64,000 nucleotides of DNA from Methanothermococcus sp. Ax23 (GTDB lineage: Archaea > AGJL01 > Methanococci > Methanococcales > Methanococcaceae): positions 160,001 to 224,000 of the forward strand of contig NZ_CP157522.1 of assembly GCF_049075655.1 (NCBI RefSeq). The letters are read 5' to 3'. The notes beneath the pieces were generated by a model. It made no database searches and was not told the origin of the DNA. It saw only the letters and a list, made by a program, of their open reading frames with translations. This document shows positions 17,105-40,997 of the stretch, one piece after another; the first letter of the stretch is position 1, and every line of letters starts with the position of its first letter. The translations under genes were made by a program, and so were the position numbers.

Positions 17105-17442
17105 CTGACCTACTCCAACGAGTGAACTCGTTGGGTTCTCGCTTACGGTAGTAAGCGAGCAACGAAATCACGAAGTGATTTCGTCTAATTTTAGTAGGGT
17201 TTAACCCTACACGGGTGGCCAAACCCACTACCCCTATCCCCGTTTAGGAGATTCAGGGCTACCTTTTGAACTTCCAACCACTACCAGCGGTAGAGTTTTC
17301 ACTAACCCTACCCATAGATACTTGGACTGGTAGCGTTACTTACTATTAATCTTCTCATATTTATATTTTACTACTTACTAGCCGATATAATGTCCGCCTC
17401 TCATCCAACGATTAAAATCGTTGGCTTTCTCGGCGGTTTATC
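17105..17442 (-). mobile_element. non-autonomous IS200/IS605 derivative (~338 bp) retaining a TnpB-type right end / omega-RNA, no ORF
   Basis: subterminal hairpins CCAACGAGTGAACTCGTTGG and CCAACGATTAAAATCGTTGG; minus strand resembles tnpB tails (GGGGATAGGGGTAGTGGG...GGAGTAGGTCAG); preceded by TTAC. Confidence 0.72.
17139..17188 (+). repeat. double-hairpin mini-element copy inside the IS derivative
   Basis: TCGCTTAC-GGTA-GTAAGCGA + GCA + ACGAAATCAC-GAA-GTGATTTCGT + CTAA. Confidence 0.7.
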
Positions 17443-17484
17443 GTAAAATATAAAAGAATATAAAAAAATAAAATAATATTAATA

Positions 17485-18897
17485 TTAATTTTTATCCAAT
17501 TTCTTTTTTAGAATCTCTACGACCTTCTTAGGTTCTGCTCTTCCTCTTGTTAATTTCATTACCTGTCCCATTAGGAAGTTTAATGCAACTTTGTTTCCGC
17601 TTAAATAATCTTGCACTGCCTGAGGGTTGTTTTTTATAGCCTCATCGCAGGCATTTTCGAGAACATCATCAGAAGTAATTACAGTTAAACCGAGCTCCTC
17701 TATAATTTCCTTTGGTGATTTTTCACCCCTGTTTTCAACCATTATTTCAATTACTTTTTTACCAATCTTTTGGCTGATGGTTTTACTTGTAATTAATTTT
17801 ATCAATTCCGTTAAATGTTCAGGTTTTAAATTGCTTTCAAAGAAATCTATTTTATTATATGCTAAAACCCTTCTTAATTCATTTCTTATCCAGGTTACTG
17901 CAAGACCTACATTCTCCTCATTTACTCCAAGGTCATTTACAACCTTTTCAAACACATCTGCAAGAGCCAAATCAGAAACAAGCACTTTTGCATCTTCCAT
18001 TTTTATATTATATTGCTCTACAAATCTCTTTTCCTTTTCCATAGGAGTTTCAGGCATCTGAGCTTCCACTTCTTTTACCCAGTTTTCATCTATCACAATA
18101 GGCTGAAGGTCTGGGTCTGGAATATATCTATAATCATCTGCGGTTTCTTTGCTTCTCATTGCCTTTGTAATCATTTGGGATTCCATAAATGCCCTTGTTT
18201 CCCTCTTAATTTCTCCCCCTCTTCTGAGTATGTTTTTCTGTCTTATGAATTCATACTTTAAAACTTTATAAACTCCTTTGATGGAATTGACGTTCTTTAC
18301 CTCAACCCTGTTTCCTTGAATACCGTTGTAATTGACAGATATATTCACATCTGCCCTCATTGTCCCTTCTCCTCTCAGATGACCTATGTATCTGAACAAT
18401 CTCATGAGCTGTTTTAAAAACTCCCTAGCTTCCTCTGGGTTCTTTATATCAGGCTCAGATACTATCTCAATAAGAGGCGTTCCACTTCTGTTGTAATCTA
18501 CGACCCCCAAATCAGGTTTATACTGTCCAGGGTCTTCTTCAAGATGCACCTCTGTAATACCAACGCCTAAAAAGTTTCCATTAACGCCTATTGGAACAGA
18601 GGTTCTTTGGTATCCACTAGGTAAATCAGGATAATTATAGTGTTTTCTCTGGAAGTAAATGTCTTTATCCAAAACTATCTCACATCCGAGCATTTTTGCC
18701 ACCATAATTGCTATATCCACTGCCTTTTTATTTGGTGGCATTGGTCGAGCTCCGGGATGTGCTATACACACAGGGCAAATATTCGTGTTTGGTGGGACAT
18801 CGTTATAATTTGTAGGGCATCTACAAAACAATTTAGATTTTGTATCGACCTGAACATGTATTTCTAATCCACATTTCATAGACACATTTTCATCCAT
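17485..18897 (-). CDS. gatB: Asp/Glu-tRNA amidotransferase subunit B
   Basis: GLEIHVQ, RKHYNYPDLP, HLEEDPG, DYNRSGTPLIEIVSEPD and DYRYIPDPDL motifs. Confidence 0.96.
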   Translation of the reverse strand: MDENVSMKCGLEIHVQVDTKSKLFCRCPTNYNDVPPNTNICPVCIAHPGARPMPPNKKAVDIAIMVAKMLGCEIVLDKDIYFQRKHYNYPDLPSGYQRTSVPIGVNGNFLGVGITEVHLEEDPGQYKPDLGVVDYNRSGTPLIEIVSEPDIKNPEEAREFLKQLMRLFRYIGHLRGEGTMRADVNISVNYNGIQGNRVEVKNVNSIKGVYKVLKYEFIRQKNILRRGGEIKRETRAFMESQMITKAMRSKETADDYRYIPDPDLQPIVIDENWVKEVEAQMPETPMEKEKRFVEQYNIKMEDAKVLVSDLALADVFEKVVNDLGVNEENVGLAVTWIRNELRRVLAYNKIDFFESNLKPEHLTELIKLITSKTISQKIGKKVIEIMVENRGEKSPKEIIEELGLTVITSDDVLENACDEAIKNNPQAVQDYLSGNKVALNFLMGQVMKLTRGRAEPKKVVEILKKKLDKN

Positions 18898-19011
18898 GTA
18901 ATCACCGTAAAAATATAATTTTAATTATTTTAAATAATATTACAACCAGTATTTAAAGTTTTTATAAATATGTAAAATAATCAAAAATCCATGTTTATAA
19001 AAAATAAGGAA

Positions 19012-20487
19012 TTAAATTAATAAATTTATACCTTCCATCACAGCTTCAACAGATGCTCTTACAATATCCCCCTGGGCATTTTTAACCTCAACCACTTCAT
19101 GACCTCTTCTCAACTTAACAACCACTTCAACAAGGGCATCTGTTCCACCACCTATGGATTTTACATGGTAATCCTCTAATGTAATATCTGCAACACCACT
19201 TAATGCCTTTCTTATAGCATTTATTGCAGCATCCACAGGACCAACACCAAATGCAGTTTCTATAAGCTGTTCCTTTTTACACTCATCTGCAAAGTCCAGT
19301 CTGATTGAAGCTACTGGTGTTATTTTGTTTCCAGACACAACAGTGAGCTCATCCAATAGTATTTTTTTCTCAACAGATTCTCCTTTTACTTCGTTTATTA
19401 TTGTTTTTAAATCAATATCTGAAATGTATTTTCCTAAATCCCCGAGATTTTTTATTTTATCATATACCTTTTCAAATTCTTCATTTGTAAGTTTTATATC
19501 CATAAGTTCAAGTTTGTATTTTAAAGCCGCCTTTCCGCTGTGTTTTCCAAGTATTATCCTTCTTCTATTCCCAACAGCTTCTGGTGATATTGGTTCATAG
19601 GTCTGAGTGTTTTTAATAAGTCCATCAACGTGTATTCCTGCCTCATGGGCAAAGGCATTGTCTCCCACTATTGCTTTGTTTGGTGGGACTGGTAACTTCA
19701 TCAATCTTGATACAACTCTTGATGTTTCGTAGAGTTTTTCAGTCTTTACATTCGTTTTAATATCATAAAGTGTATGAAGTGCCATTACAACCTCTTCAAG
19801 TGATGAGTTTCCTGCCCTCTCACCTATTCCATTTATTGTTAAGTGGCACTGCTGAGCTCCTCCTCTTATTGCTGAAATTGTATTTGCAGTAGCCATTCCA
19901 AAATCATTATGGCAGTGGGCAGATACAGGAACTGGCACATTTTCGCTTAGGGTTTTAAACAATTCATAAGACCTCTCCGGTGTTAAAACTCCAACAGTAT
20001 CGCATACGCACGCCCTATCTGCCCCCAACTCTGCACCTCTATTGAAAAGTTCTATTAAAAACTCCACATCGCTTCTTGTGGCATCCTCTGCGGAGAGCTC
20101 TACAATCAAACCATGTTCTTTTGCATGTTCAACAGCTTTTAGTGCTGATTCAAGGGTTTCCTCTTTTGTTTTTCTCAGTTTATATTTCATATGTATTTCT
20201 GATGTTGGAACCACAAGATGAACACTATCTACATCACATTCAAGAGCATAATCTATATCAACAGGCAGAGCTCTTACAAAGGAACATATTTCAGCATTCA
20301 AATCCTGTTTGGTTATAAGTTTTATACCTTCTCGCTCTCCCTTGGATGTTATAGCACTTCCTGCTTCTATTATATCTACCCCTAATTCATCCAGTTTTAA
20401 AGCTATTTCAAGTTTTTCATTTGGAGTTAAAGAAACCCCCGGGGTTTGTTCTCCGTCTCTCAATGTAGTATCAAATATCTTTACCAT
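19012..20487 (-). CDS. cimA: (R)-citramalate synthase (LeuA/CimA family)
   Basis: DTTLRDGEQTPG, HCHNDFG; N-terminus matches my recollection of methanococcal CimA (EAGSAITSKGEREGIK, VDSVHLVVPTS). Confidence 0.85.
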   Translation of the reverse strand: MVKIFDTTLRDGEQTPGVSLTPNEKLEIALKLDELGVDIIEAGSAITSKGEREGIKLITKQDLNAEICSFVRALPVDIDYALECDVDSVHLVVPTSEIHMKYKLRKTKEETLESALKAVEHAKEHGLIVELSAEDATRSDVEFLIELFNRGAELGADRACVCDTVGVLTPERSYELFKTLSENVPVPVSAHCHNDFGMATANTISAIRGGAQQCHLTINGIGERAGNSSLEEVVMALHTLYDIKTNVKTEKLYETSRVVSRLMKLPVPPNKAIVGDNAFAHEAGIHVDGLIKNTQTYEPISPEAVGNRRRIILGKHSGKAALKYKLELMDIKLTNEEFEKVYDKIKNLGDLGKYISDIDLKTIINEVKGESVEKKILLDELTVVSGNKITPVASIRLDFADECKKEQLIETAFGVGPVDAAINAIRKALSGVADITLEDYHVKSIGGGTDALVEVVVKLRRGHEVVEVKNAQGDIVRASVEAVMEGINLLI

Positions 20488-20677
20488 AAAAATCACTCAA
20501 TTCTTAATTATGCATTTAAAATATTCCTAATATAAATTTAATATCATGTATTATAGCTCAATACCATTAACAATTAATCATTATAAATTTATAAAAACTT
20601 TTTTATATTCTATTGGATTATACAATAATGATTAATTTATAGCAGTATTATTTAATTCTTATCCATATTTATAATAG

Positions 20678-22111
<1,434 letters not shown>

Positions 22112-22177
22112 ATAATAATAAAATAAAATATAAAAAAACTAAAAATAAAATAATATATAAAAATAAAAAAATTTATT

Positions 22178-23377
22178 TTATTCTACAACTTTTTTGTTGT
22201 TCTTTGGATGTCTTTTTTCCTTATCTATTTCCATCTGTTTTAAAACTGAATCTAAGGCATCCTTTAATACTTCTATGAAATCCCATCTCTGTTTTTCAAC
22301 TACGAGCTGGATATCCTCCCCTTCCATTTCCATTCTTTTTGCGGTGGATAATTTAGGCTTTCCTTCTGCAACATAAAGTTTTCTTGGAGTTTTTACATAT
22401 ACTTTAACTATATAGTATGGAACCCCTCCTTTATCGTGCTCTTTTTTCATTACAATTTTAATCCAGTGGAGTCTTTTAGACTGCTTTGCTATTTTTTTAA
22501 CTTCTGTCATTAAAATTCTTTCTGCGAGCTCTCTCATTTCTTCATCAAATTCACCATGGAGCTCCACTTCAATTACAGATTCTTCTCTTAAATTCTTTAT
22601 ATATTTCATTATATCTATTCTTGTAACAATTCCTCTTAATGTTCCTTTTTTGGTAACCGGAACTCCTCTGATGTCGTGTTTCTCCATCAACTTTGCCACA
22701 TCAGCAATTGATGATTCTACATCCGCAGTGATAAGTGGGGAGTTCATAATCATAGATACTGGCTGAGCCATTCTTGGAACTTTCTCCCCCGCATACTCTC
22801 CAACGGTCATTTTTTTCTTAGGTTTAAATACTTTCCTTAAAATGTCATCCTCGGTAACTATCCCTATTGGGTCTCCTTCTTCATCGAGAACTACCAACCT
22901 TCCGATGTTGTATTTTCTCATTAAGCTCCTAGCTTTACCTATGCTTTCATCTTTATCAATTGTAATTGGACTTCTTGTCATTATCTTAGTTACTTTAACA
23001 TCTTTTAGGAGCTCCGATTTTCCTGCCCTTTTCATTATGTCATAGTCAGTTACAATTCCTACTAATTTTCCGTTTTCATCCACAATAGGTGCGGCTCTTT
23101 GACCACTGCCTATTATTTCACATACTGCATCCATTACTGGCGTGTTTTGGTCGATACAATGTGGTTTAAACATCAAAGCCTCAACATTTTCATTTAATGA
23201 TGATGCTAAAAGTAAATCATGTATTGTTATCATATGTATGTTTTCATTTTCATCCATAACTATTAAGTTGTGGAAGTTGTGGCTTTCCATTACCCCTATC
23301 GCCTTTGATATTGGAGTGTCTGGCGTGATTGTAATCACGTCTTTTGTTGCTATCTCTATTACGGGTTCGTTTAACAT
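22178..23377 (-). CDS. 4xCBS-domain protein with C-terminal HPF/RaiA-like domain (putative ribosome hibernation factor)
   Basis: four CBS repeats followed by ~130-aa beta-alpha-beta-beta-beta-alpha-like tail ending WDFIEVLKDALDSVLKQM. Confidence 0.7.
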   Translation of the reverse strand: MLNEPVIEIATKDVITITPDTPISKAIGVMESHNFHNLIVMDENENIHMITIHDLLLASSLNENVEALMFKPHCIDQNTPVMDAVCEIIGSGQRAAPIVDENGKLVGIVTDYDIMKRAGKSELLKDVKVTKIMTRSPITIDKDESIGKARSLMRKYNIGRLVVLDEEGDPIGIVTEDDILRKVFKPKKKMTVGEYAGEKVPRMAQPVSMIMNSPLITADVESSIADVAKLMEKHDIRGVPVTKKGTLRGIVTRIDIMKYIKNLREESVIEVELHGEFDEEMRELAERILMTEVKKIAKQSKRLHWIKIVMKKEHDKGGVPYYIVKVYVKTPRKLYVAEGKPKLSTAKRMEMEGEDIQLVVEKQRWDFIEVLKDALDSVLKQMEIDKEKRHPKNNKKVVE

Positions 23378-23435
23378 ACCCTCACCTCATTGCCGTATTG
23401 TCAATAAATATATGAAAATAATGCTATTTAAACTT

Positions 23436-23482
23436 TTGGAGCGAAGCAGAGAGCTATATAAATCCGAAGGATTTTTATTCAA
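23436..23482 (+). repeat. double-hairpin mini-element copy (solitary)
   Basis: TTGGAGCGAAGCAGAGA-GCTATATAAATCCGAAGGATTTTTATTCAA, close to array unit 2. Confidence 0.8.
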
Positions 23483-23611
23483 TATATTGATATATTTCGT
23501 TTTATTTAATATGGAAAATATGGAATGGAATGTCGCCAATAATGGTGAAAATAAAAAAATAAAAAAGAAAATGAAAAAAAGAAGATTGTATATTATTCCA
23601 GTTAATCATCT

Positions 23612-24295
23612 TTATTCGTTCATTAACATTCCTTTAAACATGTTTAACCCATCATCAGAACCCAATACTTTTTCGCTGGCCCTCTCTGGATGAGGCATTA
23701 ATAAAACGCAGTTTCCATTTTCATTGCATACTCCTGCTATGTTATCAACTGAACCGTTTGGATTGGCATCTTCGGTAATTTCTCCGTTTTCATCGCAGTA
23801 TTTAAATACTATCATATTCTTTTTATACATCTCTTGGAGTGTATCATCATCGGTGTAAAATCTACCTTCTGCATGAGCTATTGGTATCTTTAAAACATCT
23901 CCTTTTTTGTAGCATTTTGTAAATGGAGTGTTGTTGTTTTCAACTCTTATATAAACCCATTTACATATGAATCTTGCATTTATGTTATTTGTTAATGTTC
24001 CGTATGAAAAACCTGCTTCCAATCCTATCTGAGCTCCGTTGCAAATACCCAATACTGGTTTTCCATCATCAACCATCTTTTTTAATCCCTGTATTACTGG
24101 TGTTTTTGAGCTTATGGCACCTGCTCTTAAATAATCTCCGTAGGAAAACCCGCCGGGTATTACCGCACCTTTAAATTTGCTCAAATCAGTCTCAGAGAAC
24201 CATACCAATTCTGGTTTTCCTCCTGCTAATTCAATAGCATGACATACATCTTTATCACAATTTGTGCCCAAAAATTTTACAACTGCAATGTCCAT
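23612..24295 (-). CDS. purQ: phosphoribosylformylglycinamidine synthase subunit PurQ
   Basis: PGGFSYGDYLRAG, LGICNG, IAHAEG, MPHPER. Confidence 0.96.
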   Translation of the reverse strand: MDIAVVKFLGTNCDKDVCHAIELAGGKPELVWFSETDLSKFKGAVIPGGFSYGDYLRAGAISSKTPVIQGLKKMVDDGKPVLGICNGAQIGLEAGFSYGTLTNNINARFICKWVYIRVENNNTPFTKCYKKGDVLKIPIAHAEGRFYTDDDTLQEMYKKNMIVFKYCDENGEITEDANPNGSVDNIAGVCNENGNCVLLMPHPERASEKVLGSDDGLNMFKGMLMNE

Positions 24296-24385
24296 ATTAT
24301 CACTATAAATAATATATTGAAATTATTGTATCATTTAAATTATGATTATATTATAATTATGTTAGAATATATTAACTATAAATGA

Positions 24386-24685
24386 TTATTCCCTTTTTAA
24401 TTCAGAAGCTAAAACCTTTAAAAATTCTTTTGTTAATATATTAACTTTTTCAGTTCTTTCTGCTATTTCCATAATTTTTACTCTTAATCTCTCTTCATCA
24501 CAGCATTCAATATCCCTTGCTTTGATGGTTTTTCTCTTATCTTTTCTCGCGTTTTCCTCTGCCAATTTTGTTGTGGTTACGATGTATTCTTGTAAAATTT
24601 CCACAAGCTTTTCAACCGATTCAGCAGATATGTTCATATCTGTATTTTCCTTCATCAGCCTCTTAACTGTCCCTTTTGGTATCAT
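24386..24685 (-). CDS. archaeal histone variant with C-terminal extension (MJ1647-type)
   Basis: IPKGTVKRLMK...RKTIKARDI histone fold plus ~30-aa helical tail. Confidence 0.85.
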   Translation of the reverse strand: MIPKGTVKRLMKENTDMNISAESVEKLVEILQEYIVTTTKLAEENARKDKRKTIKARDIECCDEERLRVKIMEIAERTEKVNILTKEFLKVLASELKRE

Positions 24686-24842
24686 AATAAAACCTCCTGT
24701 TTTAAATACTAAATAGATATTGTGTTTAAATTTATTTAAAGTTTATGCATATTTTTTAAAATATTTTGATAGATGTTGGTAAAATAAAAAATAAAATATA
24801 ATTGGCAGAAATAACTTAAAAATAAATTATAATAAAGGGGAA

Positions 24843-26495
24843 TTATTTCAACACCGCCCCTTCATCTGCGGAAGATACCAATCTTGAATATCTTGCCAAA
24901 TAGCCTTTTTTAACCTTTGGCTCTGGTTTTTCCCATTTTGAGAGCCTTTCCTTTATTTCTTCATCGCTTAATTTTAACTCAATTTTTTTAGCAATCATGT
25001 CTATGCTGATTATGTCGCCATCTTCGATTATGGCAATAGGTCCACCAGCCATAGCCTCGGGGGATATATGCCCTATACATGGTCCCCTACTTCCACCGCT
25101 GAACCTACCATCTGTAATTAGTGCAACGCTGTCATCCAATCCCATACCACATATAGCAGATGTTGGGGAGAGCATTTCTCTCATTCCAGGTCCTCCTGCT
25201 GGTCCTTCGTATCTTATTACAACAACATCTCCCTCTTTAATGTCTCCGCTGAGTATTGCTTTTATGGATTCCTCCTCTGAATCAAACACTCTCGCAGGTC
25301 CCTGGTGCTTATACATCTTTGGATTTACTGCACCAATCTTAACAACACATCCATTTGGTGCGAGATTTCCCTTTAAAATCCTTAAACCTGCCTCTTTATG
25401 AACTGGTTTATCCATTGGTCTTATAATGCTGTAATCGATATATTTTACGCCGTTTATAATTTCTTTTATGGTTTTTCCACTTACTGTTTTTGCGTCCCTT
25501 ACCTTCTCTTCCAAAACCTTTAATACTGCTGGAATACCCCCTGCCTTGTGTAAATCAATTATAAAGTGCTCTCCACCAGGTCTAAGGGATGCTATGTGTG
25601 GAACTTCATCACTTAATCTGTCAAAGTCATCAAGTGTGATGAATCCCCTTTCTATCTCATTGGCTATTGCAGGTATGTGGAGTGTTGTATTTGTGGAACC
25701 ACCAAGTGCCAAATCAACCAATATGGCATTTTCAAAGGATTCCTTTGTTAATATGTCCGTTGGTTTTATGTTGTTTTTCACTAAATCAACTACTCTCATC
25801 CCGCTTTTTTTCGCAATTCTTACCTTCTGAGCATCGACAGCAGGAGTTGTTGCACACATTGGGAGTGATAAACCGAGTGCCTCTGTTAAACATGCCATAC
25901 TGTTTGCGGTGAATAATCCTGCACAGCTCCCAGCACCTGGGCAGGCACAGTTTTCAATCTCACTTAATGCCTCTTCATCAATTTTTCCAACCTGGTATTC
26001 CCCAACTCCTTCAAATACGCTTATAAGGTCATACTTCTTTCCGTGCATTTCTCCCGGGAGCATAGGACCCCCAGTCACTACAACAAATGGTATGTTTAAC
26101 CTCAGAGCTCCCATTATCATACCGGGAACTATTTTATCACAGGATGGAATAAGCACCAATCCATCAAATCCATGTGCCTTAGCCATGCTTTCTACTGTAT
26201 CTGCGATTATTTCCCTTGAAGGTAGGGAATACCTCATACCCTCATGCCCCATGGCTATACCATCACATACCGCCATGGTGTTGAATTCAAATGCAGTTCC
26301 GCCGTTTGCATATATTCCTTTTTTTACAGCTTCTGCAAGAGTGTTCAAATGAATATGTCCTGGAACCACTTCTGTGAAGCTATTTACAACCCCTATAAAA
26401 GGTCTGTTTATTTCTTCATCAGTGTATCCGCATGCCTTCAATAAACTTCTGTTTGGAGACCTTGTAATGCCTGTTTTCACATTGTCGCTTATCAT
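24843..26495 (-). CDS. ilvD: dihydroxy-acid dehydratase
   Basis: [27 protein letters not shown]; ATG 26495 after AGGTGA. Confidence 0.96.
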
Positions 26496-26623
26496 CTCAT
26501 CACCTATTGCATCAATAAAAATCAAAATAAAATAATTATTCAAATAATATAAATATATTTATTTATAAAGTTATATATCAAAACTAATTATTATTTATTT
26601 TTCTTATTTTTCTTATTGTAGTT

Positions 26624-27895
26624 TTAACTTTTTATTTTATCCTTTTTATACTGTATAAACAACAAAATCATCAAGAATATAGATATTGAAGATATTAATG
26701 TTGCATAAGCTCCCCCGATTATCCCAAGTTTGTTTATAAGCGCATAATTTAGAACACCATTTAATACTATGCCAAATAACAGGATATACAACGGTATCTT
26801 AGCATAACCTAAACCTTGAAGTGAAGAACTGCATATTGTATATGAGCTCATAAACCCCGCAGAAATTGATAATATTTTTAAACATATTGATGCTAGATAA
26901 TCATCCACTCCAAAGAAAATCATTAAAAACTCTTTTGAAAATATAAACGCCATTGCAAGGACTGGAAGAATTATTAAAAAGTTCATTAAAAGTGCTTTTT
27001 TAAAGTAGTTGAAATCCTTTGTTTTTGCTATTCTCGGTATCAACGGAATGGATATTGCAGAAGCAAACAAAAAGACTCCTCTGGAAAGTAGGGAAGCATA
27101 ACCATAAATACCGTTATCATAAGCCCCTAATATTGACATTATAAATATGCTGTCCAAATCATTTAAAAGACGATAGGACGCCGTTCCCAAAGCTATTGGA
27201 ATGGCATATAACAATATTTTTTTAACAAGTTCTTTATTTTCATTTAGGGATGATTTAAATGATGATGCACCGATATTAAAAGATTTTCTCAACAAATAAA
27301 AGCCAAAAATCCCGCCAACAATATATGCAAATGATATGGACAGCAGAGCTCCGAAGACTCCAAACAATGATGCAAAAATTATCACAAATAATATCTTAAA
27401 GGTGTGTTCTATTACCCATGTTTTGGAGAGCTCCTTTATCTTTAACATACCCTGCAAAACTCCCCTATTCCAAGATATAAAAGATGAAGATATTATTGCA
27501 AACCCAACTGCAAGGTATAATGTGATGTCTATATTTTTATATCCCCCACCAAGTATGTATTTTAACAAAATTGTAATCAGAGCTCCGACAACTGAAAAAA
27601 TCAGCATAATCTTTAAAACAGATACAATCCATTCATTGTTATTTTTTGTCTGAAATTCGGAAATGTGTTTTGCCATTGACGGCGGGATACCTGAGCAAAA
27701 AAATATTGTCATTACATCCATCAACGGCAAAAGTCCCCTAAGTGTCCCAAATCCTTCTGTTCCAAGGATAAGAGCAGTTAAAAAATAAAATACATAAGCC
27801 ATTCCCTTTGAATAAATGTTTGAAAAAATCATGTAAAAACTGTCCTTTACCAGTCCATCCTTTTTTAAATTCTTAAATTTTTTAAATTTCAACAT
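26624..27895 (-). CDS. flippase / MATE-like polysaccharide exporter
   Basis: ~12 TM segments with RfbX/MurJ-like pattern. Confidence 0.8.
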   Translation of the reverse strand: MLKFKKFKNLKKDGLVKDSFYMIFSNIYSKGMAYVFYFLTALILGTEGFGTLRGLLPLMDVMTIFFCSGIPPSMAKHISEFQTKNNNEWIVSVLKIMLIFSVVGALITILLKYILGGGYKNIDITLYLAVGFAIISSSFISWNRGVLQGMLKIKELSKTWVIEHTFKILFVIIFASLFGVFGALLSISFAYIVGGIFGFYLLRKSFNIGASSFKSSLNENKELVKKILLYAIPIALGTASYRLLNDLDSIFIMSILGAYDNGIYGYASLLSRGVFLFASAISIPLIPRIAKTKDFNYFKKALLMNFLIILPVLAMAFIFSKEFLMIFFGVDDYLASICLKILSISAGFMSSYTICSSSLQGLGYAKIPLYILLFGIVLNGVLNYALINKLGIIGGAYATLISSISIFLMILLFIQYKKDKIKS

Positions 27896-27928
27896 GTTTA
27901 TCACTAAAAAGAAAAATAGTTTATTTAT

Positions 27929-30415: not shown

Positions 30416-30475
30416 TCTTTCCCTCAAAATTTAGTTAAAATTCATATTTATTTCTTCGGAGCTCCGGTTTATATA

Positions 30476-31109: not shown

Positions 31110-31274
31110 ATTATCCCCCTTCGGAGCTCCTATATTACTTAATTGTATTTAAGAGCTCACTTATTTATATAGTGTTTCCGAGCTCATTTAAAATTGAAAG
31201 TATAAATCTGTTATTTTATAGTATTTTAAGTAATTTTAAACCAACTCCCATTTAAATGCTTTATTTAATTTATA

Positions 31275-32945
31275 TTACTGGGATTGTTTATATATGAATA
31301 TTATCATTCCTCTATTTTCTGACTCTTTTGGAATGGTTATTATATTTAATAATTCATAGTCCGATATTTTTCCTAAATTCTTTTTTAAATCTCCTATTTT
31401 ATCACTTGGCGGTAAGCTTGCTGAGAATACAGTTTTTGCCTGTTCGTCAAATCCTACAAAAAATATAAATATTGGAACATTTATTCCATCCATTTTTTTG
31501 CTTAATTCATTTTTTAATTTATTATTTAAAAAATCCTTTTTGTTTTTCCACCAGTCCCCTCTTTTAAATTCTATTTTTGCGGATTCATAACTTAAAAATT
31601 TACTATCACAATTTAATGACTCTAAATGTTTTTCTATTAATTTATTAAACCATATTTCAAAATTAGTGTCTGCAAAAATGTGTTTATATATTGTTAAGAT
31701 TGTTAATAAACACAAATTTTGTGCGATAATATCATTTTTATAGTCAATATATTCATTTTCTAAATGTTCTATTAGGTCATTATATTTATTTAAGCTCGAT
31801 ATAGGTAAGGATATGCTTAAATCATTATATATTAGAAAATGCTTAAACTCCAAAGGACATAAAAGATATTTTTCAAGAATATGAAGCATTTTAATTTTAG
31901 ATTTATCATTAATTGATTTTTTCAAACTTTCTAATAATTCTTTTGCAAATCCTTCATCGATTTCAATTTTCCCATTATGTTCATATGCACATAATACAAA
32001 TATATCATTATCTTCTATTTTTTTATTTACCTTTTGATATTTGTCAAAATTACATTCATCTGGAATTTGTATATACTCAGTATATTCTTTTATTTTTTTC
32101 AAAGAATATCCTGATAGTTTTTGATATGTATTATTGATTTTTTCTTTCAATTTTGATGATACATTGTAATAATTTTCTACCAAATGATTATGAAATTTTT
32201 TAATATCGGAATATTTTTGATTATTCGCTTTTGAAATAATTTCTAATACTTCATATTCACTATTATTTATTTTTAGTGTATTATAACGATAATCCAACGT
32301 TATTAAGTTAGACAATAAACAATTTAATAATTTTTCATGTTCTATCTCGTATTTTATCGCCAGAAATGGCAACTCCCTATCTTTTAATTTAAAAGTTATA
32401 TCGCCCCACTCTTCCCAGTCAATTGAATCAATTCCAACAAATTCTGAAAATTTATTTGATTTATCACGCTCCCAAACTTTAACGACAATGTTATCATCTA
32501 GTATTTTTAATTTTATGAACCTTATCAAACCTTTCTTTGATATTAACGTATTTATTCTCTTTAATTCATCTTTTTCTTTACTCAATCCATCTAATTTTGA
32601 GCAATGAATTATAAATATACTATTCTCTTTTGGTTTTATAATTACAGTCAATGATTTATTTAGCCCTTTTCCATTACCTCTTATAGCACCCTGCTCAAAG
32701 TCATTCATTAATAATTCTGCCAGCATTTCATAATATTCAATATTTAGAAATCTTATGGAAAAGTCTTTCCAATTTTTTGGTAGGTTAGTTTCATTGAAAT
32801 CATATTCTTTATTTGTTCTATCTTCACAAAATTTTATCATGTCTGAAATATATTCCTCAGATTCTCTATTTAATTGCTCTTCAATTATTTCAGAGTCTTC
32901 TACAATACCATTTTTGAAAAAAACAATAATGTCATTATTTTTCAT
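31275..32945 (-). CDS. hypothetical protein in the R-M operon, possible C-terminal Schlafen/AlbA_2-like domain
   Basis: 556-aa ORF with strong RBS 23 bp after hsdS; C-terminal ESAKIEFK...IFFVGFDE pattern. Confidence 0.6.
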   Translation of the reverse strand: MKNNDIIVFFKNGIVEDSEIIEEQLNRESEEYISDMIKFCEDRTNKEYDFNETNLPKNWKDFSIRFLNIEYYEMLAELLMNDFEQGAIRGNGKGLNKSLTVIIKPKENSIFIIHCSKLDGLSKEKDELKRINTLISKKGLIRFIKLKILDDNIVVKVWERDKSNKFSEFVGIDSIDWEEWGDITFKLKDRELPFLAIKYEIEHEKLLNCLLSNLITLDYRYNTLKINNSEYEVLEIISKANNQKYSDIKKFHNHLVENYYNVSSKLKEKINNTYQKLSGYSLKKIKEYTEYIQIPDECNFDKYQKVNKKIEDNDIFVLCAYEHNGKIEIDEGFAKELLESLKKSINDKSKIKMLHILEKYLLCPLEFKHFLIYNDLSISLPISSLNKYNDLIEHLENEYIDYKNDIIAQNLCLLTILTIYKHIFADTNFEIWFNKLIEKHLESLNCDSKFLSYESAKIEFKRGDWWKNKKDFLNNKLKNELSKKMDGINVPIFIFFVGFDEQAKTVFSASLPPSDKIGDLKKNLGKISDYELLNIITIPKESENRGMIIFIYKQSQ

Positions 32946-32968
32946 ATCTACCCCTCCTCATTTAAATA

Positions 32969-34168
32969 TTAAACTAATTCCCCCTTAAATGCTTTATTTA
33001 AAATACTTTCTTTTAATTCTTTGAATAGGTTTAATTGTTTTTCTTGTAGTTGTTCTAATTTTTTTATTTTGTTATGTAGATTGTCTAAATATTCGGCGAT
33101 TTCTTTTTGTTTTTGTAGGTCTGGTTTGTTGTCTTTGTATGGGATAGGGATTAAAAGGCTTTCAAATTTTTTCTTAGTTATATGTTTCATGGTAGAACCA
33201 TGAGTTTTATCTGTAATACTCTTCAATATAGGCTTAATCGCGAAATACATATATTTTTTATCAATATATTCATTTTTCAACTCCACTTTAAAAATATGTT
33301 GATTTAATAGAGCCTTTCCACCACTCCAAATATATGCGTCAATTGAAGCAGACCACGATATTAGCAAATCCTCATTTTGAATATAGTATTTTTTTTCGAC
33401 AGGTTTTGAACAATAATTATATGGTGCGTTTGGATTATTTAAATTTTGAATTCTAATTATGGGTAGTCCCGTCTCTTCCCATTCAGAAGGCTTAAAAGCT
33501 CGTCCATTTATATATTTCCCCACATCTCCCAATCTAACCAATTTAAACCCTTCATCTTTAAAAACCTTATTTAAGACAGAATTAAATAAATCCTTTGTTT
33601 CATTTAATGCTTTTTGTCTTAATTCTATTGCTTTGTTAATATTGTTAAAGAGAGTTTCTATTTTATTAACAATTTCCTTTTGTTTTTGTAGGTCTGGTTT
33701 GTTGTCTTTGTATGGGATTGGGATTAAAATTTCTTTTAATTTTTTTGCATTAAAATTTGGTTTAACTCCTCCACTCGGCACTATTTGACTCCAATAATAT
33801 TTAGATTTAAAAAACATGTCTAAATAATAAGGATTAACAACATCTAAATTAGGTTTAATTTTTATCAGATAGGAAGCAAAAATTACGGGTTCTGAAAGAT
33901 TTTCTTTAATTAAATATGTTTTACCTGTTGTTGAACCAGTCCTTGCAAAAAGTATATCTCCTTTCTTTAAAATATATCTACTTATATCTTTTTCTGGCTT
34001 GCAATATGGGACATTCTCCCAATTTACATTGTTATCTTGTATATCAGTAATTCTTAAAAGTTTTATTCCAGTATTTTCTTTTAGAGCTTTTGTAGTGTAG
34101 CCATATTGTGGATTTTCTTTTAATAAATCTTCCAATCTAACCAATTTCCAACCATCTGGCAATTCCAT
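32969..34168 (-). CDS. hsdS: type I R-M specificity subunit
   Basis: ELPDGW start, two TRDs, repeated IPIPYKDNKPDLQKQKEI, C-terminal SILNKAFKGEL. Confidence 0.95.
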   Translation of the reverse strand: MELPDGWKLVRLEDLLKENPQYGYTTKALKENTGIKLLRITDIQDNNVNWENVPYCKPEKDISRYILKKGDILFARTGSTTGKTYLIKENLSEPVIFASYLIKIKPNLDVVNPYYLDMFFKSKYYWSQIVPSGGVKPNFNAKKLKEILIPIPYKDNKPDLQKQKEIVNKIETLFNNINKAIELRQKALNETKDLFNSVLNKVFKDEGFKLVRLGDVGKYINGRAFKPSEWEETGLPIIRIQNLNNPNAPYNYCSKPVEKKYYIQNEDLLISWSASIDAYIWSGGKALLNQHIFKVELKNEYIDKKYMYFAIKPILKSITDKTHGSTMKHITKKKFESLLIPIPYKDNKPDLQKQKEIAEYLDNLHNKIKKLEQLQEKQLNLFKELKESILNKAFKGELV

Positions 34169-34178
34169 AATTTAACCC

Positions 34179-35684
34179 CTATAAATTACTTTTTATCTCT
34201 TCAATTATATTTTTAATATTAACATCAATCTCTTCAATCTCTTTTACAACTTCATTAGGTTCTTTATATTCGATTTCTTCTTTTTTATTTGGATTTTTGG
34301 CAGTTAAATCATAATCTCTTTTTTTAATCTCGTCAATGGAAACAATCCAACTATTTTCAGAAATTTCACGATTTTTAATTTTATTCAAAACATCCTCAAA
34401 ATCTTCATCTTTTATCCTTTGTTTTTTCGTATATTTGCCCTCTAACTCATAATACCAAATTTCTTTGGTTTTTCCCGTCTTCTCAAAAAATACAATATTT
34501 GTTTTAACTCCTGCTCCCATCTGACTAAATACACCCTGCGGTAGTGAGACAATGGCAAAAACATTAAATTTATTTAAGAGCTCTTCCCGAATTGTTTTGA
34601 ACTTTCCACCACCGAACATTATTTGACCCTCTGGAAGAATAACTCCTGCCCTTCCTCCATTTTTTAACTTCCTCATTATATATTGAAGTGCTAATGCCTC
34701 CGTAGATTGTATTTTGTGGGGGAAATTATCCTGAACCTTTTTATTCTCCCTACCACCAAATGGCGGATTTGTAATAATTATATCGTATTTTTCACTTTCT
34801 GGAACATTATGAACATCCTCATCTCCTAAGGAATTTCTCCTATAATAATTAGGAGTTAAAATGCCGTGCAAAACCATATTCATAGTCCCTAATAAATAAG
34901 GAAATGGCTTTTTTTCATGCCCATAAAGTGTTTTATACATCAAAGTTTCATGCTCTTGAACTGTCATCAATTCCCCGAGCTCATTCTGAATATATTTTAA
35001 TACCTCAATTAAAAAACCAGCAGAGCCTCCAAATGGGTCAAATACTTTTTCTCCTATTTTTGGTTTTATCACATTAATAATAAATCTTATAATAGGTCTC
35101 GGCGTATAAAATTCTCCGCCCCATCCTGCTTCATTACCCATATTTAATAGGAGCTCCTCATATATTTGAGATAAAACATGAGTATCCTCATAATCATCAG
35201 TATTAATATTATCAATTTTATTTATTACATCCACTAAATTATAAGTGGATTTCATTTTATTTCCTGAAATTTCTTTAAAAATGCTTGCAATTTTCTCCCT
35301 CCCGGGTGTTCCTTCCAAACTCCTCAGATATGGAAACAAAATATTATCTATGAAATAAACTAAGGTATCCTCTAAATCTTCTATTTCTTTAATCTCTTCA
35401 TCAACATCATCAACAAAATCCTTTAAACTCTCCTTAGGTTTTCCTATCCAGTCTCTTTTTGCCCAGTTTGACCATCTATATTTTTTATCGATTATGGGAA
35501 TATATTCCCTACCATCCATTAAAGCAGTTTCCTCCAACTCCTTTTCAACACTTTCAAACACTTTTAAAAACAAAAGCCACGACAATTGTTCCATATAATC
35601 CATAGCCCCAGAAGTTCCGTCGTCCTTTCTTAATATATCACATGCGGATTTTACTTCGCTTTTCACTATTGATTCTCTTTTCAT
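34179..35684 (-). CDS. hsdM: type I R-M N6-adenine methyltransferase
   Basis: GEFYTPR, DPFGGSAGFL, TNPPFGG. Confidence 0.95.
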   Translation of the reverse strand: MKRESIVKSEVKSACDILRKDDGTSGAMDYMEQLSWLLFLKVFESVEKELEETALMDGREYIPIIDKKYRWSNWAKRDWIGKPKESLKDFVDDVDEEIKEIEDLEDTLVYFIDNILFPYLRSLEGTPGREKIASIFKEISGNKMKSTYNLVDVINKIDNINTDDYEDTHVLSQIYEELLLNMGNEAGWGGEFYTPRPIIRFIINVIKPKIGEKVFDPFGGSAGFLIEVLKYIQNELGELMTVQEHETLMYKTLYGHEKKPFPYLLGTMNMVLHGILTPNYYRRNSLGDEDVHNVPESEKYDIIITNPPFGGRENKKVQDNFPHKIQSTEALALQYIMRKLKNGGRAGVILPEGQIMFGGGKFKTIREELLNKFNVFAIVSLPQGVFSQMGAGVKTNIVFFEKTGKTKEIWYYELEGKYTKKQRIKDEDFEDVLNKIKNREISENSWIVSIDEIKKRDYDLTAKNPNKKEEIEYKEPNEVVKEIEEIDVNIKNIIEEIKSNL

Positions 35685-35824
35685 ACTATCACCTTTAACA
35701 TCCTAAAATACATAATAACATTACACTAATATGTAAAATACGGTAAAAAATTATAAAAATATTTTTTATACCCTCTTTAAAATTATAAAACTCTAAAAAA
35801 TAGAAAAAAGAATAAAAAATAAAC

Positions 35825-36025
35825 TTATTCAACCGTAGCAAAGCGAGTGGGCTATAAAATCCGTTAGGATTTTATTCAATCGGAGCGAAGCGGAGAGCTA
35901 TAAAAATCCCAAAGGGATTTTTATTCAATCACATCGAAGATGTGAGCTATAAAAATTACTTCGTAATTTTTATTCAACCACGAGCAAAGCGAGTGGGCTA
36001 TAAAATCCGTTAGGATTTTATTCAA
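35825..36025 (+). repeat. tandem array of four 47-49 bp double-hairpin units
   Basis: units 35833-35879, 35880-35928, 35929-35977, 35978-36025; each = hairpin A + GCTATAAAA...TTTTATTCAA; leading TTATTCAA at 35825. Confidence 0.9.
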
Positions 36026-36950
36026 ATTCAATTGTTGCCGGTGGTTTATCTGTAATATCTAAAACAACCCTTGCAACATTTGGAACTTCTGATGTGATTC
36101 TTTTACTTATTCTTTTCAATACACTGAATGGGAGCTCAGGCACACTTGCAGTCATTGCATCAAGGGATTCAACAAACCTTACTGCAACTACCCAATTGTA
36201 TTCTCTTATGTCTCCTTTAACTCCTGTTGCCTTTGTATCAAGCACAGCGGCAAAATACTGCCATAAATCTTTATCGAGACCTTCTTTTTCTATCTCTTCC
36301 TCAACTATGGCATTTGCTTCCCTGCACACTTCCAACTTTTCCTCTGTGATTTCCCCTAAAATTCTTACTGCAAGACCGGGTCCTGGGAATGGCTGTCTGT
36401 TTGCTATTTTATCTGGAAGCCCCAATTCTCTTGCCAATATTCTTACCTCATCTTTATATAATTCTCTCAACGGCTCAACAACTTCAAGCACCATTCCGCT
36501 TGGCAATGCTATGTTGTGGTGTGTTTTAATGTCCCCTTCACTTTCTATCCAATCTGGTGCAATAGTTCCCTGAACAAGAACCTCTTCACCGTTTTCCTTT
36601 GCAACTTCCTCAAATACTTCAATAAATAATCTTCCTATTATCTTCCTTTTCTCTTCTGGGTCATCTACTCCCTTTAATTCCTTTAAAAATAAGTCCTTTG
36701 CATTAATTATTTTTAAGTTAAGTCCCATATCTTCTTTAAATATTTTGTAAATTTCCTCTGCTTCATTTTTTCTCATAAGTCCTGTATCAACAAAGACTGC
36801 TAAAAGTCTGTCCCCTATTGCCCTGTCTGTAAGAACTGCGGCTACTGAACTATCTACGCCACCACTAAGTGCTATTATTGCCTTTTTGTCCCCTATTTGT
36901 TCCTTTATTTCTGAAATGGATTCTTCAATGAATTTTTTAGCATCAAACAT
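36018..36950 (-). CDS. guaAB: GMP synthase subunit B (ATPPase)
   Basis: [36 protein letters not shown]. Confidence 0.95.
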
Positions 36951-37048
36951 ATAATATCACCATTTATATTCCATATTAGATTTTTAATCCACATTATAAT
37001 AATCTAATTTATTTTTTATTTTAATTTTATTTATTTCTTAATTATTTC

Positions 37049-38701
<1,653 letters not shown>

Positions 38702-38831
38702 CTAATAACATATAACAAATAACATATAACAAATATATAACCAACAGCTTACTTAAAAATATAAAGAATATATCTTATTGAAAATTATATAAAAATATAT
38801 GCAAATAAAAAAATAAAATTTAAAAAAAGAA

Positions 38832-39179
38832 TTATGCTACATTAGCACCTTGAATGGTTTTTTGTAATGATTCTTGTAAATCCATTAATCTCTTCTGCAT
38901 TTTTTCTTCCTGTTTTTCCAATGTTTTAGTCCTTAATTTTAAGGTTTCCAATTTTTCGTTTAATTCTTCTTCTATTTCTTTTTTATTTCTTTTTACAAGT
39001 ATGCCGCCAGCCATCTTATATACTTCCTCTGACTGTGATTTTCCCATCTCTTCCAACGCCTTTTCCATTTCTTTTATTTGTGCTTCTATCTGCTGTTTTT
39101 GGAAAACAATAGCCTGCAACTGCTGTTGAAGTTGTTGAAACTGCATTAATTGGTTTTGAACATTTGGTGGTAATTCCAT
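38832..39179 (-). CDS. pfdB: prefoldin beta subunit
   Basis: [21 protein letters not shown] coiled coil, [10 protein letters not shown]. Confidence 0.93.
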
Positions 39180-39243
39180 AATTTCCCTCCTTTTTTATTT
39201 ATAGTATTTTATATAACGTATAAATATTATATATCTATTATAT

Positions 39244-39558
39244 TTATTGTTCAGATGTTAATTTATAAATACTTTCCGCAACCTTTATCCATCTAATGTA
39301 TGAATACAACGATGCCTTTAAAATACTGAGCTCATCTGCAACAGTTTCTATAAATATTATGTTATTTTCAATTTTCATAATGCTCTTTGACCTTATCTGA
39401 GAATCAAGATGTTCTAAAAGTATGCTATCGTATATTATTTTTGCTTCATCTTCTGAACTGCATTCTATTTCCAAACTAAAAGATATATCAGACTTATGAT
39501 TAAATTTATCCACATTTATATTCAATTTACCCGCAGCATTAGATGTATTGGTGTTCAT
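39244..39558 (-). CDS. pcc1: KEOPS complex subunit Pcc1
   Basis: AKIIYDSI...RSK...ADELSILKASLYSYIRWI; superoperon position. Confidence 0.8.
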   Translation of the reverse strand: MNTNTSNAAGKLNINVDKFNHKSDISFSLEIECSSEDEAKIIYDSILLEHLDSQIRSKSIMKIENNIIFIETVADELSILKASLYSYIRWIKVAESIYKLTSEQ

Positions 39559-39623
39559 GATATCGTTTTTATTTATCTTTTTTATTTAACATATTTCCGC
39601 AAGAAGTCCCCACCCGTAAGGGA

Positions 39624-39668
39624 TTGAACAAAATCCTTCGGATTTTGTAGCCCTTCGCTTCGCTACGG
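39624..39668 (-). repeat. double-hairpin mini-element copy inserted in the IS left-end hairpin
   Basis: minus strand CCGTAGCGAAGCGAAGG-GCTACAAAATCCGAAGGATTTTGTTCAA. Confidence 0.85.
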
Positions 39669-39746
39669 TGGGATGAATTGCGGACAAAATATATAAATGG
39701 TATAGTGATAACATACTATTTATAAGTTATCAAACTGTGATGCCCA

Positions 39747-40997
39747 ATGATAAGGACTTACAAGTTCAGGATTTATCCTTCAAAGAGTATCCAAAGAACA
39801 ATAGAGGAGCATCTAAATATATGTAGATACCTTTATAATTATCTTTTGGAACAAAAAACTAAGAATCCAAAACTAAACAAAATGGATACTCAAAAACTAA
39901 TTACAGAGCATAAGAGGGAGAATCCTGAACTTAAAAAAGTCCATTCAAAAGTATTACAGATGGTAAATAACAAGCTTTGGGGAAATCTCAAAGCATTAGG
40001 GGAACTAAAAAAGAATGGATTCAAAGTGGGGAAGTTAAGGTTCAAATCCTCTAAAAATCATTACAAAACATTAGAATACAATCAATCAGGTTTTAAGATT
40101 GATTATAACACTAAAAAACTAAAACTATCCAAGATTGGAGAAATTCCAATAGTATTACACAGAAACATCAAGGGAGAAGTTAAAGGAGTTATTATAAAAA
40201 AAGAACCTACTGGCAAGTGGTTTGCCTTCTTCCAAGTTGAGGAGGAACCTAAACCACTACCTAAAACTAACAAAGTTGTAGGTATCGATTTAGGAATCGA
40301 TGGTTATACCATCGATTCAGATGGTAATAAATTTGAAAATCCAAAGTTTATAGATAAGACATTGGATAAAATAAAGAGAGTTCAAAAGAACCTATCCCGA
40401 AAGGTTAAGGGTTCGAACAACTATAAAAAGACCAAACTAAAACTTATCAAGGTTTATGATAAACTAAACAATCAGAAAAATGATTTTCTACATAAGTTAT
40501 CTAGATACTACATAAATAACTACGATAAAATAATTTTAGAAGACTTAAATATAAAATCGATGGTTGAAAATGGAAAATGTAAGACCTTAAACCGTCATAT
40601 TCTTGACGGTTCATGGCGTAAATTCATAAATCTACTTCTCTACAAGGCGGAGGGTGCTGGTAGAGAAGTAATATTAGTAAATCCCCATTATACTTCTAAA
40701 AAATGTTCCAACTGCGGGCATGTTGTTAAAGACTTAAAACTTTCAGATAGAATCTTTTTTTGTCCTGTCTGCGGTTGGAAAATCGATAGGGATTATAACG
40801 CATCCCTAAATATATTAAAGTCAGGGCTGGGAGAGTCCGTTGTGCCTGCCGAGAGAAAACCTCTGCTCCAAACTATTTCTTATAAAGAAGTGGTTTTGGG
40901 GCAAGTTTTCTCAATGAATCAGGAAGCCTTGCCCGAAGGGCGAGGGCTACGAAAACCGAAAGGTTTTCGTTTAACCCCGTCCGTAAGGGCGGAGTAA
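39747..40997 (+). CDS. tnpB: RNA-guided endonuclease TnpB
   Basis: RTYKFRIYP N-terminus; RuvC D (GIDLG), E (ILEDL), D (DRDYNA); CSNC/CPVC zinc ribbon. Confidence 0.95.
   Translation: MIRTYKFRIYPSKSIQRTIEEHLNICRYLYNYLLEQKTKNPKLNKMDTQKLITEHKRENPELKKVHSKVLQMVNNKLWGNLKALGELKKNGFKVGKLRFKSSKNHYKTLEYNQSGFKIDYNTKKLKLSKIGEIPIVLHRNIKGEVKGVIIKKEPTGKWFAFFQVEEEPKPLPKTNKVVGIDLGIDGYTIDSDGNKFENPKFIDKTLDKIKRVQKNLSRKVKGSNNYKKTKLKLIKVYDKLNNQKNDFLHKLSRYYINNYDKIILEDLNIKSMVENGKCKTLNRHILDGSWRKFINLLLYKAEGAGREVILVNPHYTSKKCSNCGHVVKDLKLSDRIFFCPVCGWKIDRDYNASLNILKSGLGESVVPAERKPLLQTISYKEVVLGQVFSMNQEALPEGRGLRKPKGFRLTPSVRAE

Follow-up and report, generated by a model that had tools for sequence, protein, structure and literature searches.

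The stretch of DNA considered here (the window, 64,000 nucleotides, C1:160001-224000) belongs to Methanothermococcus sp. Ax23, whose genome (G000) of 1.67 Mb lies in two contigs, has 32% G+C and is 98.9% complete. The window has the gene content of a methanogenic archaeon (including HMD and GatB). Among them stand eight short units, each made of two hairpins on one strand, which an initial annotation took for a minimal non-coding mobile element. Reading of the sequence recovered all eight. Sites both filled and exactly empty are known for unit 1, unit 4, unit 5 and a tandem array, and they support the idea of mobility. We therefore consider it very probable that the units are a mobile, non-autonomous mini-element of the Methanococcales. 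The units of the window are as follows.

17139-17188, plus strand: unit 1, 50 nt, inside a PATE-type element, folding z -7.0; hairpin A TCGCTTAC-GGTA-GTAAGCGA, linker GCAA, hairpin B CGAAATCAC-GAA-GTGATTTCG, tail TCTAA
About 23434-23482, plus strand: unit 2, solitary, with a 5' boundary uncertain by about 3 nt
35833-35879, plus strand: unit 3a, array member
35880-35928, plus strand: unit 3b, array member with a purine-rich hairpin A of the type TCGGAGCGAAGCGGAGA
35929-35977, plus strand: unit 3c, array member with a perfect hairpin A, TCACATC-GAA-GATGTGA
35978-36025, plus strand: unit 3d, array member about 94% identical to unit 3a
39624-39668, minus strand: unit 4, inverted relative to its host insertion sequence (IS), within the 3' arm of the left-end (LE) hairpin
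40927-40974, plus strand: unit 5, in the orientation of the IS, between ..CAGGAAG and the right-end (RE) hairpin; the tnpB open reading frame (ORF) reads through it

Folded as single-stranded DNA (ssDNA), seven of these eight units are better than at least 198 of the 200 dinucleotide shuffles made of each (z -2.7 to -7.0), and unit 2 folds weakly (z -1.5, equalled by 20 of 200 shuffles). The latter is intergenic, with a CBS-domain gene on one side and a GATase gene on the other, in a region of 235 nt as against a unit-free region of about 103 nt in the related genomes G012 and G010. Units 3a to 3d form a head-to-tail array of units of 47-49 nt at 35833-36025 (TRF period 49, 4.2 copies), in which the tail of unit 3d, TTATTCAA, provides the stop codon of a minus-strand GMP-synthase gene. 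A scan of the window with Rfam 15 gave no match at the gathering score, the only entry near unit 1 being a chance-level match to RUF1 below that score, and a tRNA scan of the window gave none.

The architecture described for the units held on closer reading and can be written as hairpin A, then G-GC(T/A)A, then hairpin B, then T-Y-Y-A-A, with the next nucleotide nearly always T. Units measure 45-57 nt and usually start with TC; hairpin B has a stem of the form (C/T)(G/A)AAA.. and often a GAA loop, and the C-GAA-G loops pointed out earlier are indeed common. A simple pattern scan of the genome provided 38 unique hairpin-B modules (seed alignment A2). In all 38, the G, C and A of the linker G-C-(T/A)-A and the AA of the tail are invariant, while the third linker position goes with the tail: A occurs with TCTAA in 18 modules and T with TT(C/T)AA in 17, leaving three exceptions. 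On this alignment a covariance model of hairpin B, linker and tail with 8 base pairs (R1) was built, and the whole genome was searched with it (loci L001-L085).

Since the seeds had been picked for perfect stems, the search was repeated with a sequence-only nhmmer profile that holds no pairing information, which gave 69 matches, 40 of them unique. In these 40, five of the eight stem positions of hairpin B vary with compensatory changes, and none of 5000 permutations equals the observed pairing. The pairs at the five positions are C:G 28 and T:A 10; G:C 20 and A:T 18; A:T 37 and T:A 3; A:T 19 and T:A 19; and C:G 32, T:A 6 and G:C 1. In a third alignment (A3), fitted by the model and thus leaning towards structure, with partial matches still included, 99.1% of cells pair, six of the eight pairs change on both sides, none of 500 shuffles equals this, and slid controls reach 35-60%. 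All of these covariation figures are inflated by the common ancestry of the copies.

Hairpin A is not conserved in sequence, yet its predicted minimum free energy is -4 kcal/mol or lower in 26 of 70 unit clusters, compared with 49 of 2000 control sites, for which the upstream DNA of randomly chosen GC(T/A)A sites was used. A GCGNAGC core occurs within hairpin A in 18 of the 70 clusters and at 13 of 2000 control sites. This type of mini-hairpin is called extraordinarily stable in one article (PMC13037366), and nearest-neighbour energies under-rate it. The hairpin A type of unit 1, TCGCTTAC/GTAAGCGA, has compensatory variants (TCGCTTGC/GCAAGCGA, TTGCTTAC/GTAAGCAA and TCACTTAC/GTAAGTGA).

Larger arrangements of the same parts are also seen. 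Eight copies of a composite (C1:910391, 1263335, 1457811, 1550347, 1578269, 1587568, 1541149 and 1048319) consist of a TCGCTTGC..GCAAGCGA hairpin followed by CTAAAACC-TAC-GGTTTTAA and, in seven of the eight, by a full unit. The hairpin A of composite units resembles the usual purine-rich type in reverse complement, and hairpin A can therefore stand in either orientation relative to hairpin B. In the related genome G013 (L106, C1:1310700-1311300; L107, C1:1285750-1286300) smaller modules like hairpin B are nested in the loop or stem of hairpin A, with one unit holding four of them, and identical units stand in tandem as well. The nested modules suggest that single hairpin modules may insert alone.

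In the host genome the covariance model returned 192 matches at E<=1, and a cut-off of E<=0.01 leaves 89 of them; the eight units of the window, with E-values of 1e-8 to 5e-5, are the only full-length matches in it. Among the best 150 of the 192 matches, removal of partial and antisense ones left 101 full-length units, which a crude flank-based grouping places in 70 clusters, a few of them still redundant, or roughly 60-65 independent insertions. Amplified PATE or IS copies carry some of these clusters as passengers: one of 21 units, one of 7 and two of 3.

Further genomes were taken from a group of 40 in two families, searched both as the phylum and as the relatives of the host, together with one outgroup genome (G040), for 41 in total. 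For each genome the best 150 candidates were scored, and the unit counts of the relatives are thus lower bounds. Matches at E<=1e-3 were found in 21 of the 41 genomes and in both families of the group, with at least 82 units in the host genome, at least 94 in G013, at least 44 in G003, at least 28 in G010 and at least 1-18 in the others. In one genus a single genome of seven was matched, marginally (E 8e-4), and the outgroup gave no R1 match. In G031, which has at least 15-18 matches, a P-loop ATPase ORF contains an in-frame unit of 48 nt. An exact-pattern scan of a genome contig collection gave four matches in bacterial metagenome-assembled genomes, about the number expected by chance, and did not recover the Methanococcales genomes that bear the motif; the same pattern gave no match in a viral contig collection, having elsewhere recovered no genome of that order known to carry it. 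Public sequencing runs holding part of the window number 21, and three hold more than half of it, with 0.72-0.91 of the sampled words.

Three of the four dispersed units of the window (1, 4 and 5) lie at ends of the IS200/IS605 type, as the initial annotation had it. The elements concerned are these.

17105 to about 17455, minus strand: PATE, a transposable element of the miniature inverted-repeat class (MITE), about 350 bp long and without tnpB; right boundary approximate; unit 1 lies inside it, inverted
17115-17134, read on the plus strand: PATE end hairpin of the RE side, CCAACGAG-TGAA-CTCGTTGG
17405-17424: PATE end hairpin of the LE side, CCAACGAT-TAAA-ATCGTTGG
39591-41003, plus strand: tnpB-only element of the IS200/IS605 family, after TTTAAC and ending in ..AATTCACT; domains OrfB_IS605, Cas12f1-like_TNB and HTH_OrfB_IS605
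39608-39622 and 39669-39672: LE hairpin of the IS, CCCCACCC-GTAA-GGG/TGGG, split by unit 4; unsplit arms CCCCACCC-GTAA-GGGTGGGG
39747-40997, plus strand: tnpB ORF, open across unit 5 and across the RE hairpin as far as a stop in ..GGAGTAA
40977-40992: RE hairpin of the IS, CCGTCC-GTAA-GGGCGG, with unit 5 directly 5' of it

The PATE family has more than 25 copies in C1 with 81-98% identity and lengths of about 300-400 bp, with one-strand end hairpins CCAACGAN-TNAA-NTCGTTGG. It is classed as a PATE-type derivative of an IS200/IS605 element because similar one-strand hairpins stand at both ends and because pieces of it are common to a tnpB IS family.

Unit 1 stands 4 nt from the PATE end hairpin, and exactly its 50 nt are missing from at least nine paralogous PATE copies, each filled copy having 10-16 empty partners. 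The empty site reads GGGTTC^TTTTAGTAGGG (GGGTTC^TTTTAG) and the filled one GGGTTC-TCGCTTAC...GTCTAA-TTTTAGTAGGG, the unit standing between the hyphens. Some PATE copies differ solely by the presence of unit 1, and the close similarity within the family implies that its amplification in a genome free of tnpA is fairly recent. The IS at 39591-41003 has two sister copies of about 87% identity, at C1:336350 and C1:1308507, and each of the three carries a different inverted unit at a different place in the LE and is empty at the other two places. The unit precedes the LE hairpin in C1:1308507, lies inside its 3' arm in the window (unit 4) and follows it by 6 nt in C1:336350. Unit 5 is present in all three copies and missing from the related copies C1:334760 and C1:497546, where ..AATGAAGCAGGAAG (CAGGAAG) abuts the RE hairpin. 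Unit 5 is therefore an insertion too, and neither the RE nor the guide-RNA region includes it by construction; the last 24 or so codons of tnpB consist of the inserted unit and the transposon end. Further paralogous pairs of filled and empty sites were found at C1:1458064, 1587500, 126052, 1071369 and 706272.

Empty sites are orthologous as well as paralogous. G012 (flank 89% identical) and G003 (95%) have no unit of the array at the orthologous site, where the sequence reads ...AAACTTAT/CTCAA^ATTCAATTGTTGC. Directly upstream of the array in the window is a type I restriction-modification methylase gene (34179-35684, HsdM_N and N6_Mtase); the flank of G003 on that side is different DNA, placing the array at a synteny break. 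In genome G015 an IS that bears tnpA holds a 49-nt inverted unit between GATGAAT and TAGGGG of its left end, the same spot as in the C1:336350 copy, and G032 and G024 are empty there. Among these tnpA-bearing genomes, G024 (L086 1-420) has a partial tandem duplication that involves the tnpB 3' end and the right end of its tnpA-tnpB IS, with about 120 nt of the 3' coding sequence of tnpB present twice.

Units are found within genes, too. In gltX, a 57-nt unit interrupts in frame the catalytic domain of glutamyl-tRNA synthetase (GluRS) and is absent in 24 of 24 relatives. An in-frame unit 95% identical to it lies in an LMWPc phosphatase gene and is absent in G012 and G010, the only congeners that can be aligned on both sides. 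With near-identical units in two unrelated genes, both missing from congeners, the element has copied itself since this lineage diverged. In all, open frames of at least 120 codons hold 10 of the 70 clusters. A check was made on six: five belong by Pfam to GluRS, LMWPc, a TPP enzyme, ATP-grasp_3 and a GHMP kinase, and the sixth is a kinase match below the cut-off. The in-frame units occur in both orientations.

How far the units depend on TnpB transposons, which they had been said to parasitise, is best judged from the whole genome. Twenty of the 70 clusters lie within about 100 nt of an IS or PATE end signature, compared with 404 of 5000 random places, the list of signatures having been chosen after inspection. 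One spot, ATTCAT, 6 nt from the LE hairpin, was entered recurrently. Across the 41 genomes, units occur in 16 of the 19 with tnpB (PF07282) over the cut-off and in 5 of the 22 without. The units prefer the ends of such elements, and the proposed parasitism is right only in part, most clusters lying elsewhere and at least six units being in frame inside ordinary genes.

The borders of the insertions are exact and, as had been noticed for dispersed units of the window, there is no target duplication; junctions show only 0-5 nt of microhomology. The ambiguity of 1-5 nt arises because a unit usually starts with TC and the 3' flank usually with T or TC, for instance the T of the PATE site, the TC of C1:1458064, the (T)CG of C1:1587500 and the ATC of gltX. 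At the array, the octamer TTATTCAA is common to target and unit tail, and the GMP-synthase stop codon within it is regenerated by the last unit. Among 38 clusters whose hairpin A is compact, 15 have AA as the last two nucleotides of the 5' flank, against a genome-wide chance of 0.125 before T. The seemingly preferred site, ..YYAA^T(C).., is the same sequence as the junction between two units, which would account for the tandem arrays here, in G013 and in G003. Units are also found between a GGTGA ribosome-binding site and the ATG (C1:420842 and C1:1360202; L110 in G013; L117 and L118 in G003), with flanks CATAATA before and TCACCAAAAT after the unit and a hairpin A TCACC..GGTGA that restores GGTGA by the start codon; in G003, units stand at such sites as a tandem pair.

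Two other accounts of the target were tried. If hairpin A guided insertion by complementarity to the target, the 3' flank should repeat the first bases of the unit; the common-prefix sum was 46, slightly above the 35.9 of shuffled pairings and reached by 105 of 5000 shuffles; the signal comes chiefly from T/TC and from two TCACC cases at ribosome-binding sites, and the idea was not adopted. A 2-nt target duplication of TC fits gltX, C1:1458064, C1:1587500 and the ribosome-binding sites and was rejected because it fails at the array and at the PATE site.

A conserved tetranucleotide 5' of a hairpin, together with a cut end, is the anatomy used by HUH nick-and-join enzymes at IS200/IS605 ends and at repetitive extragenic palindromic (REP) sequences. 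By analogy, the tetranucleotide, hairpin B and AA^T end of the units may form a nick-and-join site on ssDNA: cuts at ..AA^TC.. would free a unit on either side, and it would then be joined into another A^T(C)-like site, each insertion regenerating the site and so giving rise to tandem arrays. Such a reaction would explain both the arrays and the preference for the exposed hairpin regions of IS ends. The most likely enzyme would be the TnpA (HUH Y1) of an IS200/IS605 element acting in trans, of which the host genome would no longer have an intact copy. It is because the anatomy of the units matches HUH sites that we rank trans-mobilisation by Y1 first and another enzyme or a host route second. 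A Y1/HUH transposase is nonetheless a tentative assignment, and the full statement of a mobile mini-element trans-mobilised by such an enzyme is, in our judgement, slightly short of evenly balanced.

Several observations weigh against this enzyme. Y1_Tnp (PF01797), the family of the enzyme first proposed, has no match in the host genome. Y2_Tnp, Rep_1, Viral_Rep, Phage_GPA and Relaxase were not found in that genome either, although the blanks for the first three are weak, control genomes being equally silent. Among the 40 genomes of the group, tnpA is intact in G015, G024 and G032, where its product has 144 aa, and broken or fragmentary in G003, G010 and G029 (the outgroup G040 has it also), and the two genomes richest in units, the host with at least 82 and G013 with at least 94, are without it, while the three with an intact gene have at least 13-18 units each. 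The hairpin CACCGCCC-TTTA-GGGCGGTG of the tnpA-bearing IS and the hairpins of the resident IS ends are rich in GC and resemble neither hairpin A nor hairpin B. Strict target choice is a trait of known IS200/IS605 transposases; the targets here appear loose and include GTTC^T, CCCT^TC, GGAG^TCG, GGAAG^CC and GGGG^AC. A strand bias relative to GC skew could not be demonstrated with 58 plus-strand and 43 minus-strand units, the skew being noisy with a mild regional trend. Finally, a copy event as recent as that of the gltX and phosphatase units (95% identity) sits awkwardly with an absent enzyme.

A gene for a Y1 or RAYT-like enzyme flanked by units, which the initial annotation had envisaged, was found at none of five unit clusters: nine of the ten neighbouring ORFs belong to ordinary Pfam families and one has no match. 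The 7.7-kb second contig was considered as a source of a Rep protein and rejected, as it encodes a helicase-like protein with no HUH domain. This contig (C2; L085, 7732 nt) looks like a circular plasmid, its large ORF with the DEAD/ResIII signature running off both contig ends.

The units may instead be moved by a route other than a recognisable HUH transposase, which we regard as rather unlikely but as the nearest competitor. Candidates would be a host structure-specific nuclease or ligase, an unnamed protein family common to the unit-rich genomes, or a replication or repair route such as template switching or the trapping of hairpin oligonucleotides in nicks through microhomology of 1-5 nt. 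The missing HUH families, unit counts that do not track tnpA and recent copying in a lineage free of tnpA all point this way, as do junctions that share microhomology (T, TC, TCG, ATC, TCACC) and not a fixed target, and the nested hairpin-B-like modules in the hairpin A loops of G013. Yet the invariant linker and tail beside a covarying hairpin look like a site of protein recognition and cleavage, nucleotide-exact borders in many independent events are unusual for repair-based capture, and the five clusters with their ordinary neighbours offer no candidate gene. Units and IS200/IS605 elements moreover co-occur across genomes, units being present in six of six Methanococcales genomes with an intact or broken tnpA. 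A more specific form of this route, in which units of 45-57 nt would be among the smallest known mobile DNAs and would move although the cell has no transposase gene dedicated to them, is improbable. A host nuclease or ligase, the replication machinery or an unrecognised family would then nick the hairpin-B/AA^T site and paste the folded strand, with IS-end hairpins as preferred landing sites.

Readings that dispense with mobility altogether are contradicted by the empty sites. That the units might belong by constitution to IS200/IS605 ends or to the omega-RNA scaffold, with all other copies decayed IS remnants, is suggested by the three of four dispersed window units in IS or PATE ends, by 31 of 101 units having spread as passengers of amplified PATE or IS copies (clusters of 21, 7 and 3), and by unit 5, present in all three IS copies at the place where the scaffold of a TnpB guide RNA is expected. 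This is very improbable, given that, for every IS-borne unit, sister or related IS copies show the site empty, that 50 of 70 clusters lie away from IS end signatures, that the array, gltX and phosphatase sites are empty in orthologues with no IS sequence around them, and that G013 has at least 94 units and only three tnpB matches. Equally improbable is an immobile motif under selection, serving for instance to terminate transcripts, stabilise RNA or bind a protein, which had several origins or was duplicated locally: hairpin B does end in a T-run, oligo-T being the archaeal termination signal, many units are intergenic, and 3a and 3d look like a local duplication, but a 57-nt sequence 95% identical in two unrelated genes, at least six units in frame in coding regions in both orientations, and presence or absence that is exact between conserved flanks do not agree with it. 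None of the results that would count against mobility was thus obtained, as empty sites exist, covariation is strong and the units are not constitutive parts of IS ends.

It has long been asked by what means very short palindromic repeats spread. REPs have a candidate enzyme; we know of no mobilising enzyme for the Rickettsia palindromic elements (RPEs) or for the archaeal MJREs. The present family offers clean material, with exact paralogous and orthologous empty sites, recent copying, a defined conserved site and a preference for IS ends, and it comes with a natural contrast between unit-rich genomes that lack tnpA, genomes with an intact tnpA and a sister genus almost free of units. The units also remodel genes, adding 16-19 residues to GluRS and other enzymes, and sit at ribosome-binding sites. 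In altering the ends of TnpB elements, and probably the guide-RNA region, they are relevant to the mining of archaeal TnpB systems.

Among known systems, one comparison is with the REP, BIME and REPIN elements of bacteria and their RAYT (Y1) transposases (PMC2817692, PMC3337134 and PMC3116915). Like the units, they are short non-coding hairpins with a tetranucleotide 5' of the stem that occur singly, in clusters and in arrays in about a hundred copies per genome. They differ in that the genome of the units has no RAYT/Y1 gene and none stands beside the unit clusters, in the linker, which is GC(T/A)A in the units and GTAG in REPs, and in being inverted doublets, whereas a unit has two different hairpins on one strand. 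The host of the units is an archaeon, and 10 of 70 clusters lie within long open frames and are thus not strictly extragenic.

A second comparison is with the IS200/IS605 elements themselves. IS608 uses the target TTAC, a right end TCAA and a guide tetranucleotide 5' of each hairpin. The units likewise have one-strand hairpins, a conserved 5' tetranucleotide and no target duplication; their end T-Y-Y-A-A resembles TCAA, and their tail (A)TTCAA^T resembles the resident IS right end ..ATTCAC^T and the target TTTAAC^. The same features link them to PATEs, a term used for MITEs of IS200/IS605 origin in Haloquadratum walsbyi (PMC3119063). Their hairpins, however, match no resident IS or PATE end and no tnpA-bearing IS of the relatives, the host genome has no cognate TnpA, and they are 6-8 times shorter than the window PATE, with no room for a left-end guide and with loose targets. 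The units are thus placed outside the REP/RAYT class, as they have no RAYT and are not strictly extragenic, and outside the PATE class, as their hairpins are not those of an IS.

Closer in habit are the RPEs, palindromic selfish repeats found in frame in housekeeping genes (PMC2996958 and PMC2229807), and the units likewise lie in frame in genes and add a short peptide. The RPEs are bacterial, measure about 100-150 bp and are unrelated in sequence. To our knowledge, no association of RPEs with IS200/IS605 ends has been described.

The nearest relatives may have been described in the Methanococcales already, and that the units belong to no described family, as was first assumed, is doubtful. 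Suyama, Lathe and Bork, writing in FEBS Lett in 2005, reportedly listed 141 MJRE elements of Methanocaldococcus jannaschii in three groups, 14.3 kb in total and about 100 bp each, and some MJRE2 copies are said to lie inside coding regions without breaking the frame. We know of no filled and empty sites, link to IS ends or enzyme reported there. The passages of PMC2996958 and PMC2229807 that cite the work mention only coding potential. A full-text literature search gave no match for the names MJRE1, MJRE2 and MJRE3 and did not find the filled and empty sites, the recent copy event, the preference for IS200/IS605 ends or the absence of HUH enzymes in print for the unit family. Going by the reported description, the family probably corresponds to or resembles MJRE1-3: both are short palindromic repeats of Methanococcales genomes with some copies in coding regions, here the in-frame units of gltX, the LMWPc gene and G031, although an MJRE, at a reported length of about 100 bp, is twice as long as one unit. 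A mobile mini-element like REPs, RPEs and MJREs is, or was recently, active in this lineage.

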